Source: Squalus acanthias
Taxonomy: Eukaryota
Length of the DNA: 64,000 bases
Direction: 5' to 3'
NCBI GenBank assembly: GCA_030390025.1
Contig: CM059431.1
Location: 128,590,001-128,654,000, forward strand
How positions within the stretch are numbered: position 1 is the first letter of the stretch; each line of letters opens with the position of its first letter. Of the stretch, positions 13,082 through 62,208 are shown in pieces. A program made the translations under genes and the position numbers. The notes beneath the pieces were generated by a model. It had not been told where the DNA came from and did no database searches. It was given only the letters and a program-made list of their open reading frames with translations.

Positions 13082-14180
13082 GGGTGCCGTTTGGGTTCCA
13101 AAATGGCGTCCGCACTTCTGGTGCAGGCTGTGCCCGATGTCATCTTGGGTAGGGCGTAGGGAGCAGGTGCAGGGAGTGGCGCCGGAAGTATGCATAGTAG
13201 GCAGTTCGTGACTTTAATCAGCATGCAACTCTGATTTGATGGCAGCGCTGCCATTTTGGAGCTCAACAGTCCAGCTAATGCACTCTCTTAAACTCGCACA
13301 GCTGAACACGTGTTCAACAGCAGGAAGGTCCCCCCCACCAGCGCTAATAAAGGGTTCATCAACTACTTGGAGTTTAGTTGCTGATTGATTTCTACTGGCT
13401 GTTGCTGAGTTTGTAGAAGTGTTTGGTGGTTTGTATAGTTATTTCAAGTTGCTAAAGTCTGCAGGGAGTGGTGTGGCAGGTGCTGAAAGACTTTGTCCTG
13501 ACTTCAAAGATTCTGCACAGACCACTTGCTCCAATGGGTGCAGTAGCAGACATTGCACTTGGCCTACAGCATGACAGGGAGAATGAGCAGAAGTGACACA
13601 GAGCAGGTCAAGCTACGGGAAAGGGAAGAGGAGGAGGGGGCAAAGGGCTCTCAGCAGGAGGCCATATCCACCCAGGTTGTTCAGGGAGCAATACGCTTTC
13701 CTGAACCTCAGCGAGGAACAGTATGTCAGATGTCTGCATTTCACCAAGGATGTCCTCACTGAAATCTGCCACCTGCTGCAGCCACAATCTCAACCTCAGA
13801 GCAGGACGAGGATCGCTTTGCCAGCGCCTGTGAAGGTCACGGTGGCCATGAACTTTTATGCACCAGGCTCCTTCCAGGCTGGAGATATTGCAACATCTCC
13901 CAATTTTCCGTGCACTGTTGCATAAGGGAGGTAACTGAGGCTCTGTATTCCAAGAGAACTGAACACATTTCCTTCTCTCTGGCCAACGAGCAGCAGGCGG
14001 AGCGAGCACGTGGCTTTGCGAGGATTGCAGGCTTCCCCTTGGTGCAGGGTGCCATTGACTGTATGCATGACACTTTGCGGGCGCCACATGCATCAGAAAT
14101 GCATCAGAAGCAACGGGTGCAGCTTAATCGTGCATCGCGATCCCCGCGCCCGTTTTCAGGGGCTATCGAATTTAGCCCCC
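13082..14180 (+). mobile_element. Harbinger fragment with the 5' half of a HARBI1-type transposase (ATG 13534 to ~14090, frameshifted)
   Basis: RRPYPPRLFR..VKVTVAMNFYAPGSFQ and GFARIAGFPLVQGAIDCMH (first catalytic D motif). Right TIR GAATTTAGCCCCC. Confidence 0.85.
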
Positions 14181-14368
14181 ATAGAATCTTACAACACAGA
14201 AGGAGGCCATTCGGCCCATTGTGCATGTGCCAGCTCTTTGAAAGAGCTCTCCAATTAGTCCCACACCCCAACTTTTTACCTGTAACCCTGTAAATTAGTT
14301 CTCTTCAAGTACATGTCCAATTGCCTTTTGAAAGTTCCTGTGGAATCTGATTCCACCACCCTTACTAG

Positions 14369-14450
14369 TAGCATAGTGGTTATATTACTGGACTAGTAAT
14401 CCAGAAGTCTGGCCTAATGAGCCGGAGGTATAAGTTCAAATCTCCACCAT
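14369..14450 (+). promoter_or_regulatory. tRNA-derived Pol III internal promoter (SINE-like head)
   Basis: A-box-like TAGCATAGTGG; perfect anticodon arm CTGGA-CTAGTAA-TCCAG (14388-14404, AGT anticodon); B-box GTTCAAATC (14434-14442). Confidence 0.7.
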
Positions 14451-16687
14451 GGCAGTTGGGGAATTTAAATTCAGTTAATTAAATAAATCTGGAATAAAAA
14501 GCTAACATCAGTAATGGTGACCATGAAACTACTGGATTACCGTAAAAAAACAATCTGGTTCACTAATGTCCTTCAGGGAAGGAAATCTGTCATCCTTATC
14601 TGGTCTGGCCTATATGTGACGCCAGACCCACAGCAATGTGGTTGACTCTTAACTGCCCTCTGAAATGGCCTAGCAAGCAATTCAGTTGTAACAAACCGCT
14701 ACAGAAAACAATAATAAGAATAAAACCAGACAGACCACCTGGCACCGACATCGGACAAGACAACGGCACACCCAGCTAAGACCTCATCTCTAACATCTGG
14801 GGACTTGTGTCAAAATTGGGAGAGCTGTCACACAGACTAGTCAAGAAACAGCCTGACATAGTCATAATCACAGAATCATACCTTTCAGCCAATGTCACAG
14901 AGTCCTCCATCACCATCCCTGGGTATGTCCTGTCCCACCGGCAGGACAGACCCACCAGAAGTGGCGGCACAATGGTATACAGTTGGGAAGGAGTGGCCCT
15001 GGGAGTCCTCAAAATTGACTCCGGACCCCAGAAGTCTCATGGCTTCAGGTCAAGCATAGGCAAGGAAACCTCCTGCTGATTATCACCTACCGCCCTCCCT
15101 CAGCTGATGAATCAGTACTCCTCCATGTTGAACACCACTTGAAAGAAGCACTGAGAGTAGCAAGGGCACAGAATGTACTCTGGGTGGGGACTTCAATGTC
15201 CATCACTAAGAGTTGCTCGGTAGTACCACTACTGACCGAGCTAGCCGAGTCCTGAAGGACACAGTTGCCAGACTGGGCCTGTGGCAGCTGGTGAATGAAC
15301 CAACATGAGGGAAAAATCTACTTGACTTCATCCTCACCAAGCTACCTGTCGCAGATGCATCTGTCCAAGACAGTATTGGTAGGAGTGACCACCGCACAGT
15401 CCTCGTGGAAACGAAGACCCTTCTTCACACTGAGGACACCCACCATCGTGTTGTGTGGCACTACCACCGTGCTAAATGCGATAGATTCAGAACAGATCTA
15501 GCAGCTCAAAACTGGACATCCATGAGGCGCTGTGGGCCATTAGCAGCAGCAGAATTGTATTTCACCACAATCTGTAACCTCATGGCCCGGCATATCCATC
15601 ACTTTACCATCGAACAAGGGGAACAACCCTGGTTCAATAAGGAGTGCAGAAGAGCAGCACCAGGCGTACCTAAAACTGAGGTGCCAACCTGGGGAGCTGC
15701 AACACAGGACGACATGCATGCCTGCAGCAGAAGCACCATGCTATAAACAGAGCTAAGCGATCCCACAATCAACGGACCAGATCAAAGACCTGCAGTCCTG
15801 CCACATCCAGTCGTGAATGGTGATGGACAATTAAACAACTAATGGGAGGAGGAGGATCCATGAATATCCCCATCCTCAATGATAGCGGAGCCCAGCAGGC
15901 GAGTGCAAAAGACAAGGCTGAAGCATTTACAACTATCTTCAGCCAGAGTGCCGAGTGGATGATCCATATCGGCCTCTTCCTGAGGTCCCCACCATCACAG
16001 ACGCCAGTCTTCAGCCAATTTGATTCACTCCACGTAATATCAAGAAATGGCTGAGCGCACTGGATACAGCAAAGGCTATGGACCCCGACAACATCCCGGC
16101 TGTCGTGCTGAAGACTTGCGCTCCCGAACTAGCTGCGCTTCTAGCCAAGCTGTTCCAGTACAGCTACAACACTGACATCTACCCGACAATGTGGAAAACT
16201 GCCCAGGTATGTCCTGTCAACAAAAAGCAGGACAAATCCAATCCGGCCAATTACCGCCCCATCAGTCTACTCTCAATCATCAACAAAGTGATGGAAGGTG
16301 TCATCGACAGTGCTATCAAGCGACACTTACTCACCAATAACCTGCTCACTGATGCCCAGTTTGGGTTGCGCCAGGACCACTCGCCTCCAGGTCTCATTAC
16401 AGCCTTGGTCCAAGCTGGACTAAAGAGCTGAATTCCAGAGGTCAGGTGAGAGTGACTGCCCTTGACATCAAGGCAGCATTTGACCGAGTGTGGCTTCAAG
16501 GAGACCTGGTAAATTGAAGTCAATGGGAATAAGGGGGAAAACTCTCAACTGGCTGGAGTCTAAACCTAGCACAAAGGAAGACGGTTGCGGTTGCTGGAGA
16601 TCAGTCATCTCAGCCCCAGAACATTGCTGCAGGAGTACCACAGGGCAGTGTCCAAGGCCCAACCATCTTCAGCAGCTTCATCAATGA

Positions 16688-16746
16688 GCCGGCACAGGCT
16701 TGACGAGCCAAATGGCCTCCTGTGCTGTAACCATTCTATGATTCTA
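16688..16746 (+). mobile_element. ~60-bp CR1 3' tail inserted in the RT region
   Basis: GCCAAATGGCCTCCTGTGCTGTAACCATTCTATGATTCT interrupts ..ATCAATGA|CCTT..; similar to the tail at ~4245-4295. Confidence 0.7.
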
Positions 16747-18454
16747 CCTTTCCTCCATCATAAGTTCAGAAGTGGGGATGTTCGCAGAAAATTGCACAGT
16801 GTTCAGTTCCATTCGCAACTCCCCAGATAATGAAGCAGTCCATACCCGCATGCAGCAAGACCTGGACAACATTCAGGCTTGGGCTGATGAGTGGCAAGTA
16901 ACATTCGTGCCACACCAGTGCCAGGCAATGATTATCTCCAACAAGAGAGCGTCTAACCACCGCCCCGTGACATTCAACAGCATTATCACCACCGAATCCC
17001 CCACCAACAACATCCTGGGGATCATCATTGACCAGAAACTTAACTGAACCAGCCACATAAATAATGTGACTACAAGAGCAGGTCAGAGGCTGGGTATTCT
17101 GCAGCGAGTGTCTCACCTCCTGACTCCCCAAAGTATTTCCACCATCTACAAGGCACAAGTAAGGAGTGTGATGGAATACTCTCCACTTGCCTGGATGAGT
17201 GCAGCTGCAACAACACTCAAGAAGCTTGACACCATCTAGGACAAAGCAGCCCGCTTGATCGGCACCCCATCCACCACCTTAAACATTTACTCTTATACAA
17301 ACTCCTATGCAAATTTCCTCCACCACTCCCGCACCATGGCTGCAGTGTGTACCATCTACAAGATGCAATGCAGCAATTCACCAAGGCTTCTTTGACAGCA
17401 CCTCGAAACCCGTGACCTCTACCATCCAGAAGGCCATGGACAGCAAGCGCATGGGAACACCATCACCTGCAAGTTCCCCTCCAAGTTACATACCATCATT
17501 CCTTCATCGTCGCTGGGTGAAAATCCTGGAACTCCCTCCCTAACAGCACTGTGGGGCTACCTTCACCACAAGGACTGCAGCGTTTCAAGCAGGCAGTTCA
17601 CCACCTTTTCAAGGGCAATTGGGGATGGGCAATAAATACCAGACTTGCCAGTGACGCCCACATCCCAGGAATGAAAAAAAAATGCATTCCAGTTCTTAAC
17701 AACCCTCTTTGTGAAGAAATTTCACCTCATTTCCCCTCTAGATGTTTTGCCAATTATTTAAAATCTATGACCTTTGGTTACTGACCCACTTGCCAGAGGA
17801 AACATTCTCTCCCTATTTACTCTATCAAAACCCCTCATAATTTTAAATACCTCTATTAGATCTCTTAACCTTCTCTGCTCTAAGGAGAACAATCCCAGCT
17901 TCTCCAATCTCATCCACATAACTGAAGTACTTCATCCTTAGTATTATCCTGGTAAACCTCCTCTGTACCCTTCCATACCATCTCTCTCCTTGGCTACTGA
18001 CACATTGGTCTGTGCACCCACAACTCATCGGAAGGGAAGAGGACACTCTTCCTGCTGCTCTCTTGCTTTCTGAACATCTGCATTGCTGCATCAGAGAATC
18101 TGGAGGCCCTGGATGAAGTCATACTACCTGCTGCTTCAGAAAATCACTTTCCACTGACCTCCATTGAAAAGTGCACCTTCCCCTTAGTGGGGTTGCAGGC
18201 TGCCTTCAAGCAGCTGCCCTGCCATATTTCCCACCTTCCCAATGGGTAATCTGTCTACAGGGAGTGCGATTGGTGCTGACAGCTCATCAATTATGTTAAT
18301 GAGGCCTGACCACAAGAACACTCAGGCCTTCCGCTGATTGCATCAGGCAGGCAAAGCAGACCCCACCCACTGTCCGCCCGATATACACTCCACACAAAAA
18401 TCAATCCCTATATCGTATAATTAACGTTTATATACATTCTTTTTAAATTCTTAC

Positions 18455-33210: not shown

Positions 33211-33215
33211 TGTCA

Positions 33216-35243
33216 GGTTCACGAATGTCCTTTAGGGAAGGAAAGCTGCCGTCCTTACTTGGTCTGGTCTATATGTGACTCCAGAGCCACAGCAATGTAG
33301 TTGTCTCTTAATTGCCCTCTAAAATGGCCTAGCAAGCCATTCAGTTGTGCCAAACTGCTATGGAAAACTATAATAATAAAAAAATTAGAGCGACCATCCG
33401 ACATTGATGCCAGGCATCAGAATCGGACATGACAAAGGCACACCCATGTCAGTCAACCTCACAATGTCCTCTTCACTAACATCTGGGGGGGGTGCCAAAA
33501 TTGGGAGAGCTGTTCCACAGACTAGTTGAGAAACAGCCTCACAACAACAATAACAACAACATATATTTATGTAGCGCCTTTAATGTAATAAAACGTCCCA
33601 AGGCGATTCACAGCCATGTTAGCAAAACAAAATTGACACCAATCCACAAAAGGAGATATTAGGTTTTAAGGAATCACAGAATCATACCTTTCAGCCAATG
33701 TCCGAGACTCCTCCATCACCATCCCTGGGTATGTCCTTTCCCACCAGCAGGACAGACCCACCAGAGGTATACAGTCAGGAGGGAGTGACCCTGGGAGTCC
33801 TCAAAATTGACTCTGGACCCCATGAAGTCTCATGCCATCAGGTCAAGCATGGGCAAGGAAACCTCCTGCTGATTATCACCTACCGCCCTCCCTCAGCTGA
33901 TGAATCTGCTCGTCCATGTTGAACACCACTTGGAAGAAGCACTGAGGGTAGCAAGGGCACAGAATGCATTCTGGGTGGGGGACTTCAATGTCCATCACCA
34001 AGAGTGGCTCGGTAGCACCACTACTGACCGAGCTGGCCGAGTCCTGAAGGACATAGCTGCCAGACTGGGCCTGCAGCAGGTGGTGAGAGAACCAATACGA
34101 GAGAAAAACCTACTTGACCTCGTCCTCACCAATCTACCTGTCACAGATGCATCTGTCCATGACAGTATTGGTAGGAGTGACCACCGCACATTCCTTGTGG
34201 AGACGAAGTCCCACCTTCAAACTGAGGACACCCTCCATCGTGTTGTGTGGCACTATCGGCATGCTAAATGGGATAGATTCAGAACAGATCTAGCAGCTCA
34301 AAATTGGGCATTCATGAGGCGCTGTGAATCATCAGCAGCAGCAGAATTGTATTCTACCACAATCTGTAACCTCATGGCCCAGCATATCCCTCACTCAATT
34401 TTTACCATTAAACCAGGGGAACCAACCCTTGTTCAAAGAAGAGTGTAGAAAAGCATGCCAGCAACAGCACCAAGCGTACCTAAAAATGAGGTGCCAACCT
34501 GGTGAAGCTTCAGCACAGGAGTACATACATGCTGAACAGCGGAAGCAGCATGCTATAGACAGAGCTAAGAGATCCCACAATCAATGGATCAGATCAAAGT
34601 TCTGCAGTCCTGGCACATCTAGTCAGTAATGCTGATGGACAATTAAACAACTAACCGGACCCCATCCTCGATGATGGTGGAGCCCAGCACGTGAGTGCTA
34701 AAGACAAGGCTGAAGCATTTGCAACAATCTGCAGCCAGACGTGTCAAGTGGCTGATCCTTCTCAGCCTCCTCCTGAGGTCCCCACCATCACAGAAGCCAG
34801 TCTTCAGCCAATTCGATTCACTCCACATGATATCAAGTAACGGCTGAACACACTGGATACAGCAAAGGCTATGGGCCCCGACAACATCCCGGCTGTCCTG
34901 CTGAAGACCTGTTCTCCAGAACTAGCTGCACCTCTAGCCAAGCTGCTCCTGTATAGCTGCAACACTGGAAACGACCCAACAAAGTGGAAAATCGCCCAGG
35001 TATGTCCTGTCCACAAAAAGCGGGACAAATCCAATCCGGCCAATTACCGCCCCATCAGCCTAATCTCAATCATCAGAAAAGTGATGGAAGGTGGTTGTCG
35101 ACAGTGCTATCAAGCGGCACTTACCAATAAACTGCTCACCGATGCTCAGTTTGGGTTCCGCTAGGACAACTAGGCTCCAGACCACATTACAGCCTTGGTC
35201 CAATCTTGAACAAAGGAGCTGAATTCCTCAGGTGATGTGAGGT
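33216..35243 (+). mobile_element. Second copy of the 14369-17682 LINE family, truncated at both ends
   Basis: Colinear with ~14557-16450, including the SINE-like 5' body and its junction to the EN domain (VLFTNIWG; WVGDFNVHH; SIGRSDH; NYRPISL). Confidence 0.9.
33541..33670 (-). mobile_element. Short probable L2-type 3' end inserted in the EN region
   Basis: (AAC)n followed by ATTTATGTAGCGCCTTTAATGTAATAAAACGTCCCAAGGCG; homologous to the copy at 19126. Confidence 0.6.
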
Positions 35244-36529
35244 AGCACTGATCCCAAAGCTGGAATTATTCCCAGAGCTGGCATTATTCCCCATAGCTGC
35301 AATTATTCCCAGAGCTGGCATTATTCCCAGAGCTGGCATTATTCCCAGAGCTGGCATTATTCCCCAGATCTGGCATTCCCAGAGCTGGCACTGATCCCAG
35401 AGCTGGCATTATTCCCCAGATCTGGCATTCCCAGAGCTGGCACTGATCCCAGAGCTGGCATTATTCCCAGAGCTGGCATTATTCCCAGAGCTGGCACTGA
35501 TCCCAGAGCTGGCACTAATCCCAGAGCTGGCATTATTCCCAGAGCTGTCACTGATCCCAGAGTTGACATTATTCCCAGAGCTGGCACTGATCCCAGAGCT
35601 GGCATTATTCCCAGAGCTGGCACTAATCCCAGAGCTGGCATTATTCCCAGAGCTGGCACTGATCCCAGAGTTGACATTATTCCCAGAGCTGGCACTGATC
35701 CCAGAGCTGGCATTATTCCCAGAGCTGGCACTGATCCCAGAGCTGGCATTATTCCCAGAGCTAGCAATATTCCCCAGAGCTGGCATTATTCCCAGTGTTG
35801 GCATTGATTCCAGAGCTGGCATTATTCCCAGAGCTGGCACTGATCCCAGAGTTGACATTATTCCCACAGCTGGCACTGATCCCAGAGCTGGCATTATTCC
35901 CAGAGCTGGCACTGATCGCAGAGCTGGCATTATTCCCAGAGCTGGCACTGATCCCAGAGCTGGCATTGATCCCTAGCTGACATTATTCCCAGAGATGGCA
36001 CTTTTTCCAGAGCTGGCATTATTCCCCAGAGCTGGAACTGATCCCGGAGCTGGCACTGATCCCAGAGCTGGCATTATTCCCAGAGCTGGCATTATTCCCA
36101 GAGCTGGCATTATTCCCAGAGATGGCACTGAATCCAGAGCTGGCATTATTCCCGGAGCTGGCATTATTCCCAGAGCTGGCATTATTTCCAGAGCTGGCAT
36201 TATTCCCCAGAGCTGGCATTATTCCCAGAGCTGGCATTATTCCCCAGAGCTGGCATTATTCCCCAGAGCTGGCATTATTCCCCAGAGCTGGCATTATTCC
36301 CAGAGCTGGCATTATTCCCCAGAGCTGGCATTATTCCCAGAGCTGGCATTATTCCCCAGAGCTGGCATTATTTCCAGAGCTGGTATTATTCCCAGAGCTG
36401 GCACTGATCCCAGAGCTGGCATTATTTCCAGAGCTGGCACTGATCCCAGAGCTGGCACTGATCCCAGAGCTGGCACTGATCCCAGAGCTGGCATTGATCC
36501 CAGAGCTGGCACTGATCCCAGAGCTGGCA
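35244..36529. repeat. 18-bp minisatellite, about 70 units
   Basis: Main units CCCAGAGCTGGCATTATT and CCCAGAGCTGGCACTGAT, with 19-bp (extra C) and point variants. Confidence 0.97.
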
Positions 36530-57466: not shown

Positions 57467-60400
57467 TATAGAAACATAGAAACATAGAAGATAGGAGCAG
57501 GAGTAGGCCATTCGGCCCCTTGAGCCTGCTCCGCCATTCAATGAGATCATGGCTGATCATCCAAATTCAGTAACCTGTCCCTGCTTTCTCCCCATATCCC
57601 TTGATCCCCTTAGCCTTAAGAAATATATCTTAACTCCTTCCTGAATATATTTAATGAATTGGAATCAACTGTCTTCTGTGGTAGAGAATTCCACAGGTTC
57701 ACCACTCTCTGGGTGAAGAAATTCCTCCTCATCTCAGTCCTAAATGGCTTACCCCTATCCTTAGACTGTGACCCCTGGTTCTGGACTCCCCCGCCATCGG
57801 GAACATCCTTCCTGCATCTAGTCTGTCTAGTCCTGTTAGAATTTTATAAGTTTCAATGAGATCCCCTCTCATTCTTCTAAACTCTAGCGAATACAAGCCC
57901 AATCGACCCAAATCTCTCTTCATACGTCATTCCTGCCATCCCAGGTATCAGTCTGGTGAATCTTCGCTGCACTCCCTCCATGGCAAGAACATCCTTCCTC
58001 AGGTAAGGCGACCAAAACTGCACACAATACTCAAGGTGTGGTCTCACCAAAGCCCTGTACAACTGCAGCAAAACCTCCTTGCTCCTGTACTCGAATCCTC
58101 TTGCTACGAAGGCCAACATACCATTTGCCTTCTTAACCACCTGCTGCACCTGCATGCTTACCTTCAGCGACGTACACAAGGACACCCAGCTCTCATTGCA
58201 CTTCCCCTTTTCCCAATCTATCGCCGTTCAGATAATAATCTGCCTTCCTGTTTTTGCCACCAAAGTGGATAACCTCGCATTTATCCACATTATACTGCAT
58301 TTGCCATGCATCTGCCCAATCATCCAACCTGTCCAAATCATACTGGAGTTTCTCTGCATCCTCCTCACAGCACACACACCCACCCAGCTTTGTGTCATCT
58401 GCAAACTTGGAGATATTACATCTAGTTCCCGCGTCTAGATCATTAATATATATTGTGAATAACTGGGGTCCTAGCACTGATACCTGCGGTACCCCACTAG
58501 TCACTGCCTGCCACTTGGAAAAAGACCCGTTTATTCCAACTCTTTGCTTCCTGTCTGCCAACCAGTTTTCTATCCACTGGGGCAGAAATTAGGCTCGCCA
58601 TGGGTGAGTACGCACTATGCACTCACCCGTGGACGGAACGAAAGTGCCAGTTTCCTGCATGCACTGCGCATGCGTGGGAAACCGGCACTTCCGTTCCCCT
58701 GAAGGAAGGGTTTCAGAGGTAGAACGCGCATGCCGGAGGGCCAGCGCGTTCGCCTCGCACTTCGGGTTTTTTTACAGGTTCCTCCGTGAGGGTAAGCACG
58801 GAGAAGATACACACTGAAAAAGGAGGCGCAAGGCCTTCTTTTAACAAGGTAAGTGTTGATTTTATTAAAATTTTAACATTTTTTTCACAGATTTATCTTT
58901 TTTAATTACTTTAAAGAAAGGTAAGTTTAGTTTTAGCCCCGTTAAAAAGTGAAATTATTTTTTTCAAAAATGTAAATGTTAATTAAAATAGTTAATTTAT
59001 GATATTTATAGTTATTTTAAAAATGTGATGTTTTTTTTAAATTTATTTGTAGTTTTAGGGAGGTTTTGGGGCCGATTTGTATTCATAGATTTGACAGGTC
59101 TTCCTGTCAAATCTATGAATGAAAGATGGTCTGCTGCCATTGGCTCTCCATGGCCCACGTGATCCCAGGGGATGCATCGCACTAACTACGCCCCTGGGAT
59201 ACGCAAGCACTGCGCGCCGGCAGTTGGAGGAGGCCCAGGAGCCGAATTCCTCGTGGGCCCAGGGATCAATGGCAGCCGCGGTAGGTAGGTGCGCGCGCGA
59301 TCCTTGCACCCGCGGGAAGCCAGGGAGCTGAATTTCTGGCCCAGTACCTTACCCCCAATTCCATGTGCTTTAACTTTGCACGTTAATCTCTTATGTGGGA
59401 CCTTATCGAAAGCCTTCTGAACATCCAAATACACCACATCCACTGGTTCTCCCTTATCTATTCTACCAGTTACATCCTCAAAAAATTCCAGTAGATTAGT
59501 CAAGCATGATTTACCTTTTGTAAATCCATGTTGACTTTGTCCAATCCTGTCACTGTTTTCCAAGTGCTCTGCTATTACATCTTTTATAATGGACTCTAGC
59601 ATTTTCCCCACTACCGATGTCAGGCTTACCGGTCTATACTTCCCTGTTTTTTCTCTACCACCTTTTTTAAATAGTGGGGTTACATTAGCTACCCTCCAAT
59701 CGATTGGAACTGTTCCAGAATCTATAGAATTTTTGAAGATGACCAGCAATACATCTACTATTTCTAGGGCCACTTCCTTAAGTACCCTAGGATGTAGATT
59801 ATCAGGCCCTGGGGATTTATCGGCCTTCAATCCCGTCAATTTCCCTAACACCATTTCCCTACAAATACTGATTTCATTCAGTTCCTCCCTCTCATTAGAC
59901 CCTATGTTCCCCGACATCTCTGGGAGATTATTTGTGTGCTCCTTTGTGAAGATAGAACCAAAGTATGTTTTTAATTGGTCGGCCATTTCTTTGTTCCCCA
60001 TTATAAATTCCCCTGATTCTGACTGCAAGGGACCTACGCTTGACTTCACCAATCTTTTTTTCTTCACATATCTATAGAAGCTTTTACAGTCAGTTTTTAT
60101 GTTCCCTGCAAGCTTACTCTCATATTCTATTTTCCCCCTCTTAATTAATCCCTTTGTCCTCCTTTGCTGAATCCTAAACTGCTCCCAATCCTCAGGTTTG
60201 CTGCTTTTTCTGGCCAATTTATATGCCCTCTCCTTGGATCTTATGCTATCCCTAATTTCCATTGTTAGCCACAGTTGAGTCACCTTTTTTGTTTTATTTT
60301 CATGCCAAACAGGGATGAACAAATTCTGTAGTTCATCCATGCGATCTTTAAATGTTTGCCATTGCCTATCCACCGTCAACCCTTTAAGTAACGTTCCCCA

Positions 60401-62208
60401 ATCCATCCTAGCCAAGTCGCGCCTCATACCATTGTAGTTTCCTTTATTTAAATTCAGGACCCTAGTCTCTGAGTCAACTACTTCACTTTACATCTTAATG
60501 AAGAATTCTATCATATTATGATCACTCCTCCCCAAGGGGCCTCACACAACAAGATTGCTAATTAATCCTTTCTCATTACATAATACCCAGTCTAAGGTGG
60601 CCTGATCTCTAGTTGGTTCCTCGACATATTGGTCCAGGAAACCATCCCGTATACACTCTAGGAATTCCTCCTCCACAGTATTGTTACTAATTTGGTTAGC
60701 CCAATCTATCTGTAGATTAAAGTCACCCATGATAACTGCTGTGCCCTTATTGCATGCGTCTCTAATTTCCCATTTAATGCCATCCCCAACCTCAGCATTA
60801 CTGTTTGGGGGTCTGTATACAACTCCCACTAACATTTTCTGCCCCTTGGTATTTCTCAGCTCTGCCCATACAGATTCCACATCATCAGAGCTAATATCCT
60901 TTCTTTCTATTGTGTTAATCTCCTCTTGAACCAGCAATGCTACCCCACCTCCTTTTCCTTTTTTCCTGTCCTTCCTGAATATTGAATACCCCTGGATGTT
61001 GAATTCCCAGCCTTGGTCACACTGGAGCCATGTCTCCGTAATCCCAATTATATCATATTTGTTTACATCTATTTGTGCAGCTAATTCATCCACCTTATTA
61101 CGAATGCTCCTCGCATTAAGGCACAAAGCCTTTCAGCTTGTTTTTTTCACACTCTTAGACCATTTAGAATTATTGTTTACTGTGGCCATGTTTGATTTAC
61201 ACCCTTGATTTCTCTGACTTCCACTCCACTTTTGCTTTTCTCCTTCCTGTCTTTTTCTTCTATCCTTGCTTCCCTTTCCTCTGTCTCCCTGCACAGGTTC
61301 CCAACCCCCTGCCATTTTAGTTTAAACCCTTCCCAACAGCACTAGCAAACACTCCCCCTAGGACATCGGTCCCGGCCCTGCCCAGGTGCAAACCATCCAG
61401 TTTGTACTGGTCCCACCTCCCCCAGAACCGGTTCCAATGTCCCAGGAATTTGAATCCCTCCCCCTTGCACCATTCTTCTAGCCACATATTCATCTGAAAT
61501 ATCCTTCTATTTCTACTCTGACTTGGACGTGGCACTGGTTGCAGTCCTGAGATTACTACCTTTGAGGTCCTATTTTTTTATTTACATCCTAACTCCCTAT
61601 ATTCAGCTTTTAGGACCTCATCCCATTTTTTACCTGTATCGTTGGTACCTATATGCACCACGACAACTGGCTGTTCACCCTCCCCCTCCAGAATGCCCTG
61701 CAGCCGCTCCGAGACATCCTTGACCCTTGCACCAGGGAGGCAACATACCATCCTGGAGTCTCGTTTGCGGCCGCAGAAACGCCTATCTATTCCCCTTACA
61801 ATAGAATCCCCTATCACTACAGCTCTCCCACTCTTTTTCCTCCAGTCCTGTGCAGCAGAACCACCCATGGTGCCAGGAAGTTGGTTGATGCTGCCTTCCC
61901 CCGATAAGCCATCCCCCTCAACAATATCCAAAGTGGTATATCTGTTTGAGAGGGGGATGGCCACAGGGGACCCCTGCACTACCTGCCTGTGCCTACTATT
62001 CTGCCTGGTGGTCACCCATTCCCTTCCTGCCTGTGCAGCCTTTACCTGCGGTGTGACCAACTCATTAAACGTGATATCCACGACGTCCTCAGCATCGCAA
62101 ATGCTCCAGTATGCATCCATTCGCAGCTGCAGCACCGCAATGCGGTCTGCCAGTAGCTGCAGCTGGATACACTTCCCGCACACATGGTCGTCAGGGACAC
62201 AGGAAGTG
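57467..62208 (-). mobile_element. Near full-length CR1 LINE (ORF1 with zinc-finger-like and SGNH motifs; ORF2 APE-RT) split by a MITE
   Basis: ORF1: HVCGKC, LSNRY, VIGDSIVRGID, CLPGARVKD, HIGTND, DGLHL. ORF2: LNARSIRNK, ITETWL, a 413-aa open stretch, [16 protein letters not shown] tail. Confidence 0.96.
58579..59342. mobile_element. Harbinger-type MITE (764 bp)
   Basis: TIRs GGGGCAGAAATT / GGGCCAGAAATT (rc); flanks ACT and AGT; CpG-rich ends and AT-rich centre; interrupts the CR1 RT. Confidence 0.85.

Follow-up and report, generated by a model that had tools for sequence, protein, structure and literature searches.

A LINE family of Squalus acanthias in which a single-ORF element carries a tRNA-derived head and a SINE-type body, and its possible transcription by RNA polymerase III

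Introduction

SacSINE1, a short interspersed element (SINE) of the Deu-SINE group from sharks, skate, chimaera and coelacanth, is described as having a tRNA head, a Deu body and a tail like that of L2-2_CM, and its copies reach 463 bp in length (Luchetti et al., 2017; PMC5499810). HE1 (V-SINE)/HER1 and SacSINE1 are among the pairs of a SINE and a long interspersed element (LINE) that are tabulated in a review (PMC3747384). In this study, we analyzed a LINE family that is represented in a stretch of 64,000 nucleotides from the genome of Squalus acanthias (assembly GCA_030390025.1, contig CM059431.1, positions 128,590,001 to 128,654,000 of the forward strand; hereafter the window). The element at window positions 14368-17682 is one decayed copy of this abundant family, whose members are ~3.25 kb long and carry endonuclease (EN) and reverse transcriptase (RT) in a single open reading frame (ORF). 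Similar to SacSINE1 and HE1, a ~440-nt derivative of this family has a tRNA head, a conserved-looking body and a tail in common with an EN-RT LINE. Different from SacSINE1 and HE1, whose partner LINEs share only the tail with the SINE according to their descriptions, the LINE of this study also carries the head and the body.

LINE 5' parts within SINE bodies were found in a survey of Repbase only for the RTE and Vingi clades (Kojima, 2018; PMC5786205). In the Bov-B/Bov-A/Bov-tA and Vingi-2_ACar/SINE2-1_ACar systems of that survey, the body and the tail of the SINE equal the 5' and 3' portions of the partner LINE, respectively, and the SINE may be regarded as a LINE from which the coding middle is missing, which is also the arrangement found here. 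According to the model presented there, a small-RNA head joins a deleted, non-coding derivative, and the autonomous LINE is head-less and driven by RNA polymerase II (Pol II). A head-less autonomous LINE was not what we found: each copy that reached the 5' region had the head.

ZfL2-2, a stringent-type LINE of the L2 clade, possesses ORF2 only and is retrotransposition-competent (PMC4176376). Similar to the family described here, it has a single EN-RT ORF, is a few kb long and has a specific 3' stem-loop tail; the tail of ZfL2-2 is recognized by its own protein, which mobilizes RNAs with that tail (PMC4176376). Its 5' untranslated region (5' UTR) contains repeats, and no tRNA head is reported for it (PMC4176376), whereas the present family has such a head. 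With ZfL2-2 being competent with ORF2 alone, an earlier reading of the window, made from the letters of the DNA only (hereafter the sequence-only reading), is not supported in its premise that a missing ORF1 is abnormal for elements of this kind.

In U6/L1 and tRNA/L1 template-switch chimeras, a small-RNA product of RNA polymerase III (Pol III) is fused to the 5' end of LINE cDNA. Such chimeras are single dead-end insertions, whereas the fusion described here is a propagating family with subfamilies. By analogy, a template switch of the U6/L1 type is a plausible birth event for the fusion of head and LINE. No description of a LINE carrying a tRNA head was found in the literature searched, a search that did not extend to Repbase or Dfam, and four strings of 16-19 nt taken from family copies had no match in literature text. 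Relative to the literature searched, the family is a new variation on the SINE/LINE partnership, in which the coding LINE itself bears a SINE-type head and body.

Results

The tRNA-derived head is the 5' end of the LINE family

A query across the junction between body and endonuclease (window 14560-14900) returned 4898 first-look candidates from the host genome of 3.7 Gb. All 39 other copies that were scored matched this query at 85-88% over about its full length. The 5' ends were examined in three samples of other copies. Among the junction-anchored copies (n = 29), 17 began at the equivalent of window 14367-14370, 3 at 14384-14387 and 9 further in. A query with the endonuclease region only (14800-15100) was picked to remove the bias toward the body. 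Of the 29 copies that it gave, 11 began exactly at 14368, 3 at 14377-14387 and 3, whose head was shortened or variant, at 14433, while 12 were truncated at unique points and had unrelated flanks. The copies anchored at the C terminus of the RT (n = 20) comprised 3 that began at 14367-14370, 1 that began at 14377-14387 and 16 that were truncated at unique points from 14862 to 16474.

In all three samples, each copy reaching the 5' region ended in a tRNA-Thr(AGT)-like head, and 38 copies started at most 20 nt from the first base of this head. The sequence-only reading had named another 5' end or an ORF1 in full-length copies as the observation that would speak against it. No alternative 5' UTR and no ORF1 was present in any copy of the three samples (29, 29, and 20 copies, respectively), and no alternative 5' sequence was shared among the 29 endonuclease-anchored copies. 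Moreover, 14 of 20 longer loci that were re-fetched spanned the element from head to tail (~3.25 kb), and their flanks were all different.

The 5' terminus of the family reads (C)GGGAACG followed directly by GTAGCATAGTGG, and conservation ends sharply one base before GGG. The 339-nt 5' region leads directly into the single EN-RT frame and leaves no room for an ORF1, as had been proposed from the window copy. Similar to other LINEs, the family has a common 3' end with variable 5' truncation, which was apparent from the RT-C-terminus-anchored copies and from the tails. The body had also been proposed not to be a chance neighbor of the LINE, and the recurrence of the junction between unrelated flanks bears this out: both head and body belong to the family. 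The architecture by itself, that is, a head, a body, a single ORF without ORF1 and a hairpin tail, is in our judgement close to certain.

The partner SINE and co-inheritance of the head with the ORF

Searching with the head alone yielded 29 other loci. Thirteen of them ran on into the endonuclease and 12 joined the body (~14690-14705) to the tail (~17560-17612), whereas 2 ended at the body without a detected tail and 2 were fragments. Short elements joining ~14690 to ~17610 had been anticipated by the sequence-only reading, and they were found with exactly the joints predicted. They represent a SINE of ~440 nt, which is the LINE minus its ORF, with at least two junction types. In an alignment of six SINEs, junction type 1 linked the extreme 5' end of the ORF to a point ~55 nt ahead of the stop, and junction type 2 was slightly shorter on both sides. 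SINE joints were also present in contigs of public runs from three organisms; these were short contigs of the repeat family, used for the joints and for the empty site described below. Of the traits of a SINE2 element, being short and non-coding applied to the ~440-nt derivative only and not to the 3.25-kb EN-RT element.

The 5' regions of 40 LINE-type and 23 SINE-type copies, taken from best hits only, were compared, and their majority sequences showed ~6 differences in ~335 columns. At head position 4, A was found in most LINE-type copies (32 of 40) and T in most SINE-type copies (15 of 23; p = 4e-5). Immediately upstream of GGG, a C was present in 23 of 40 LINE-type copies and in 3 of 23 SINE-type copies (p = 6e-4). 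Body column 241 was T in 30 of 35 LINE-type copies and C in 17 of 21 SINE-type copies (p = 2e-6). Finally, at the position that distinguishes TGTAAC from TGTACC, A was found in 36 of 40 LINE-type copies and in 3 of 23 SINE-type copies (p = 1e-9). Given these lineage-specific differences, the head of the LINE is inherited with the LINE and is not taken from SINE RNA at each insertion.

The tree of the 63 5' regions was star-like, with 0 of 60 branches well supported and no readable polarity. The LINE and SINE labels clustered on this tree, with 9 changes versus 18.9 in shuffles, and 0 of 500 shuffles were as low. The divergence from the joint majority, which was dominated by LINE-type copies, was 7.7% for SINE-type and 5.6% for LINE-type copies in this biased sample.

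Features of the tRNA-derived head

ARAGORN called a 92-nt tRNA-Thr(agt) in 4 and a tRNA-Ile(aat) in 1 of 33 family loci and made no call in the other 28. The Rfam tRNA model gave 27.4 and 26.3 bits in 2 of 20 loci, with a gathering score of 29 and a 22-nt insertion in the variable region. For the window copy, no tRNA was called by ARAGORN in the window or by Rfam at E<=1 in positions 13800-18200. By eye, the 22-nt variable region resembles a duplicate of the anticodon arm in tandem (CTGGACTAGTAATCCAG, followed by CTGGACTAATGATCCAG; window 14388-14426), and such a second copy would account for the 92-nt length of the ARAGORN calls.

Similar to SINE2 elements, the family has a tRNA-derived 5' head with A and B boxes. 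The majority head fits the consensus patterns TRGCNNAGTGG for the A box and GTTCRANNCC for the B box, which are spaced 65 nt. Among the LINE-type copies (n = 40), 31 had an intact A-box pattern and 23 an intact B-box pattern; among the SINE-type copies (n = 23), the numbers were 19 and 14, respectively. In the majority head, a 3' partner of the acceptor stem was lacking, as no more than 4 of the 7 pairs could form where they would be expected, and a cloverleaf fold was not obtained. A match to snoR16 of Rfam beside one SINE (E = 0.29) was taken as chance.

The ORF and its translation start

Matches to Exo_endo_phos (E = 3.5e-10), Exo_endo_phos_2 (E = 1.2e-12) and RVT_1 (E = 1.6e-33 and 7e-19) were found on open pieces of sister copies. 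Thus, as in other LINEs, an apurinic/apyrimidinic endonuclease (APE) is followed by an RT in one frame. The best relatives from a homolog search with the RT were at most 46% identical, and none of them had a clade name. The stop codon of the family is the TAG in GGCAATTAGGG, which lies within the shared tail; its equivalent in the window (17620-17622) reads TGG.

According to the sequence-only reading, an ATG of the body was in frame with the endonuclease motif NIWG in both copies of the window (14636 and 33295). This holds numerically for these two copies, in which the distances are 156 and 183 nt, with in-frame stops intervening. It does not hold for the family. Among the 53 copies used for ORF-start statistics, the distance between ATG and NIWG was mostly 182 (the mode), 179 or 170, with a remainder of 2 after division by 3 in 31 of 53 copies, which places the ATG of the family in the -1 frame relative to the endonuclease. 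The frame of ATG 14636 is therefore specific to that copy, and its role as a start codon was abandoned.

A TAA in the endonuclease frame was present just upstream in 47 of 53 copies. The triplet four codons past this TAA (window equivalent 14701-14703) was ACG in 23, ACA in 21 and ATG in 4 of 53 copies, and the rare ATGs fit CpG decay of ACG. In 37 of 53 copies, the spacing of TAA and NIWG was divisible by 3, the length variants being 129, 126, 123, 117, and 114; because these variants are multiples of 3, the basic N-terminal extension looks coding. Past the in-frame TAA, no AUG was found in the EN-RT frame until beyond the endonuclease domain, and the 339-nt majority 5' region contains 8 ATG triplets upstream of the ORF. 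Judged from these sequence features, translation seems to begin at a non-AUG codon behind the 8 upstream ATGs, and our guess for this codon is the near-cognate ACG. We also considered a -1 frameshift by which translation begun in the frame of the upstream ATG would enter that of the EN; the frames fit, but no canonical slippery heptamer was seen by eye in the overlap, and this candidate was rejected.

The 3' tail

The 3' end of the family reads CCCACATCCCATGAACGAAT(T)0-10(A)4-13; its final portion, GAAT with the T and A runs that follow it, corresponds to window 17670-17682. The tails contain a 6-bp hairpin, GCUGGC-CUU-GCCAGC (GCTGGC-CTT-GCCAGC in DNA), with a local energy of -10.4 kcal/mol. 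Its pairs were kept in 61-69 of 70-71 LINE and SINE tails, whereas partners that were slid by 1-2 columns paired in only 17-34% of cells. This hairpin replaced one that RNAalifold proposed from 71 tails, which was weak and without covariation. In having a stem-loop tail of the stringent type common to LINE and SINE, the family resembles the L2/CR1 group with regard to the tail. Of the 34 tails from LINE-type or truncated copies, 7 had a terminal run of T>=4, as had 5 of the 40 tails from SINEs.

The copies in the window and their surroundings

The tRNA-like head, the SINE-like body, the APE-RT frame and the A-rich tail that had been proposed for the window copy were all located (Table 1). Its start had been placed at 14369 and is moved here to 14368.

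Table 1. Positions of the parts of the LINE copy at 14368-17682 and of the second family copy in the window
Feature	Position	Strand	Basis or identity
Filler bases ACTA (4) at the 5' junction	14364..14367	+	Host-repeat comparison
tRNA-Thr(AGT)-derived head, lacking the first 8 nt of the family (CGGGAACG)	14368..14455	+	ARAGORN, Rfam on sister loci, box patterns
A box TAGCATAGTGG	14369-14379	+	
Anticodon arm, perfect 5 bp, AGT at 14395-14397	14388-14404	+	
Decayed second copy of the anticodon arm	~14408-14426	+	
B box GTTCAAATCT	14434-14443	+	
SINE-type body (~245 nt), the remainder of the LINE 5' UTR; holds ATG 14636 and in-frame TAA 14689-14691	14456..14700	+	Same sequence in SINE- and LINE-type copies
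Decayed single ORF: basic N-terminal extension, APE endonuclease (NIWG starts 14792), reverse transcriptase	14701..17622	+	Domain matches in sister copies
Foreign fragment, 58 bp, in the RT region	16688..16745		Sister copies join 16687 directly to 16746
3' tail common to the SINE: last ORF codons, AATAAA, decayed hairpin (17638-17652), GAATGA, A9 (17674-17682)	17560..17682	+	
Second family copy, with its 5' truncation point at the equivalent of 14554 and broken off at the equivalent of 16450	33213..35241	+	77% and 85% identical with the first copy

The window copy is nested in an interspersed host repeat (window 14180-14363 and 17683-17971), of which uninterrupted copies are present at several loci (e.g., L025, L074, and L107). 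Across the insertion site, the sequence of three further host-repeat copies is CCACCACCCTT-TCAGGCAG-TGCATTCCAG, whereas the window reads CCACCACCCTT, ACTA, the element and TGCATTCCAG. Comparison of these flanks with the uninterrupted repeats thus showed that the insertion was associated with an 8-bp target deletion and 4 filler bases and had no target-site duplication. The empty site was also seen in contigs of public runs, in which 14363 was joined to 17683 with 8-10 other letters between them. No clear target-site duplications were seen by eye in 14 full-length copies. Some LINE groups are commonly without target-site duplications. Within the family, the 58-bp foreign fragment was confined to the window copy; the same fragment recurs at other loci beside the host repeat.

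The independent copy that the sequence-only reading had placed at 33216-35243 is real and, as stated there, is truncated before the head and has the same junction between body and endonuclease as the first copy. Its segments 33213-33543 and 33672-35241 align to 14554-14858 and 14866-16450, respectively, and an unrelated insert of 128 bp (33544-33671) splits it just past the start of the endonuclease region. A minisatellite with an 18-bp unit (TCCCAGAGCTGGCATTAT; 70.8 copies, 84% matches) occupies 35252-36529 and begins 10 bases beyond the broken end of the second copy. Finally, a different LINE family is present at 59186-60487 on the minus strand, with an open frame of 433 amino acid residues and an RVT_1 match (E = 1.9e-14). 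Relatives of this family in the fetched loci contained many T4 runs on the sense strand.

Discussion

Transcription of the family

In at least two subfamilies, of the ACG and ACAG types, the head has been transmitted with a 5' end that is constant to within 1 nt. Because the whole head was transmitted through copying in these LINE subfamilies, the template RNA would have to begin at or just before base 1 of the head, irrespective of the flank. A tRNA-type internal promoter would give such a flank-independent start at base 1. The EN-RT protein would then recognize the shared 3' hairpin and would copy the LINE RNA in cis and the SINE RNA in trans by target-primed reverse transcription. That a family with this architecture has its RNA started at the first base of the head by an internal A/B-box Pol III promoter is, from these sequence comparisons, a possibility that we would place somewhat short of even.

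Several further observations are of relevance to such a promoter. Among 15 full-length copies, no run of T>=4 on the sense strand was common to 8 or more copies, compared with 16 A, 11 C and 10 G runs. The open frame had ~0.2 T4 runs per kb, versus ~2.4 per kb in another LINE family of the same loci, with T contents of 20 and 24%, respectively. In L1 assays, templates made by Pol III were reported to need no ORF1p (PMC2666806). In its fullest form, the proposal would be that a coding LINE is made by Pol III from a tRNA-derived promoter and is thus a giant coding SINE, which dispenses with ORF1, keeps clear of terminators in the form of T runs and has its protein made without cap and AUG, and that the conserved body of an old lineage of vertebrate SINEs is the LINE's own 5' UTR. 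This fuller version is put forward only tentatively.

A number of points weigh against transcription by Pol III and against the scheme built around it. The T4 deficit is weak, as a first-order model expects 2.5 runs per copy (P(0) = 0.07) and a second-order model expects 1.3 (P(0) = 0.32). Like the products of Pol II, the tail contains AATAAA and terminates in a run of A. A stretch of T>=4 (4-10 T) before the A run was limited to 12 of 74 tails, suggesting that most masters are without a built-in terminator. Pol III RNAs are usually a few hundred bases long, uncapped and poorly translated, whereas this element is 3.25 kb long and must yield protein; to our knowledge, a translated Pol III RNA of 3.25 kb is without precedent. 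All copies seen were decayed, and the longest open frame among 113 scored matches was 625 of ~950 amino acid residues. The SINE would most simply have arisen from the LINE by an internal deletion that reached from the start of the ORF to its last ~18 codons. In the opposite polarity, the LINE would have captured the front of the SINE; the tree did not give the polarity, and in the biased sample the SINE-type copies are, if anything, slightly older.

The same elements could be ordinary LINEs transcribed by Pol II, in which head and body would be no more than a 5' UTR, or would form an internal promoter from which Pol II happens to start at base 1 of the head, while Pol III would be used by the short SINE only. 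We consider this possible rather than probable. It would account for the AATAAA found ~40 nt before the A-rich end and for an element of 3.25 kb that needs to be translated, it agrees with a T4 deficit that stays within the expectation from composition (P(0) = 0.07 to 0.32), and ORF1-less LINEs of the L2 clade are described as functioning with their own 5' UTR (PMC4176376). Under Pol II transcription, however, a start within 1 nt of tRNA position +1 that has persisted in two or more subfamilies would call for an explanation of its own, 8 upstream ATGs and an ORF without AUG are poorly suited for cap-dependent scanning, and the majority sequence retains both an intact A box and an intact B box. 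Alternatively, transcription could start anywhere upstream, for instance in host genes, and the head could be a processing signal at which a cleavage of the RNase P type trims the RNA to a fixed 5' end. The 5' end does coincide with tRNA position +1 and the family is very abundant, from which we assume that many copies lie inside host transcripts. However, the head lacks a partner for the acceptor stem and forms no cloverleaf, and ARAGORN called a tRNA at only 5 of 33 loci, which makes such processing improbable.

Two other explanations concern the origin of the head-bearing copies themselves. Template-switch chimeras are known for LINEs, and the ~240 nt of near-identical body in LINE and SINE would favor template switching. 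The LINE master RNA could accordingly be without a head, with each head-bearing copy being a fresh chimera that arose when the RT jumped to SINE RNA within the shared body. The heads of LINE-type copies, however, bear diagnostic bases of their own (p = 4e-5 and 6e-4, as given above), which is unexpected if the head is borrowed each time, and we regard repeated borrowing as more improbable still than trimming of a longer transcript. The chance adjacency of a SINE and a truncated LINE at this locus, or a segmental duplication as the source of the two window copies, has in its favor only the prior that nested and adjacent repeats are common. It is refuted by the presence of the junction in the 39 other scored copies, drawn from 4898 candidates, with unrelated flanks at every inspected copy, and we give it practically no weight.

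Implications

LINEs have been taken as Pol II elements and tRNA heads as a mark of non-coding SINEs, and a propagating LINE that bears such a head blurs this line. In annotation, a single copy of this kind may end up as two entries, a 'SINE' and a 'truncated LINE'. Moreover, the family bears on the question of why some LINEs dispense with ORF1 and on the origin of conserved SINE bodies. Finally, it is a system in which to ask whether Pol III can make the RNA of a coding retrotransposon.

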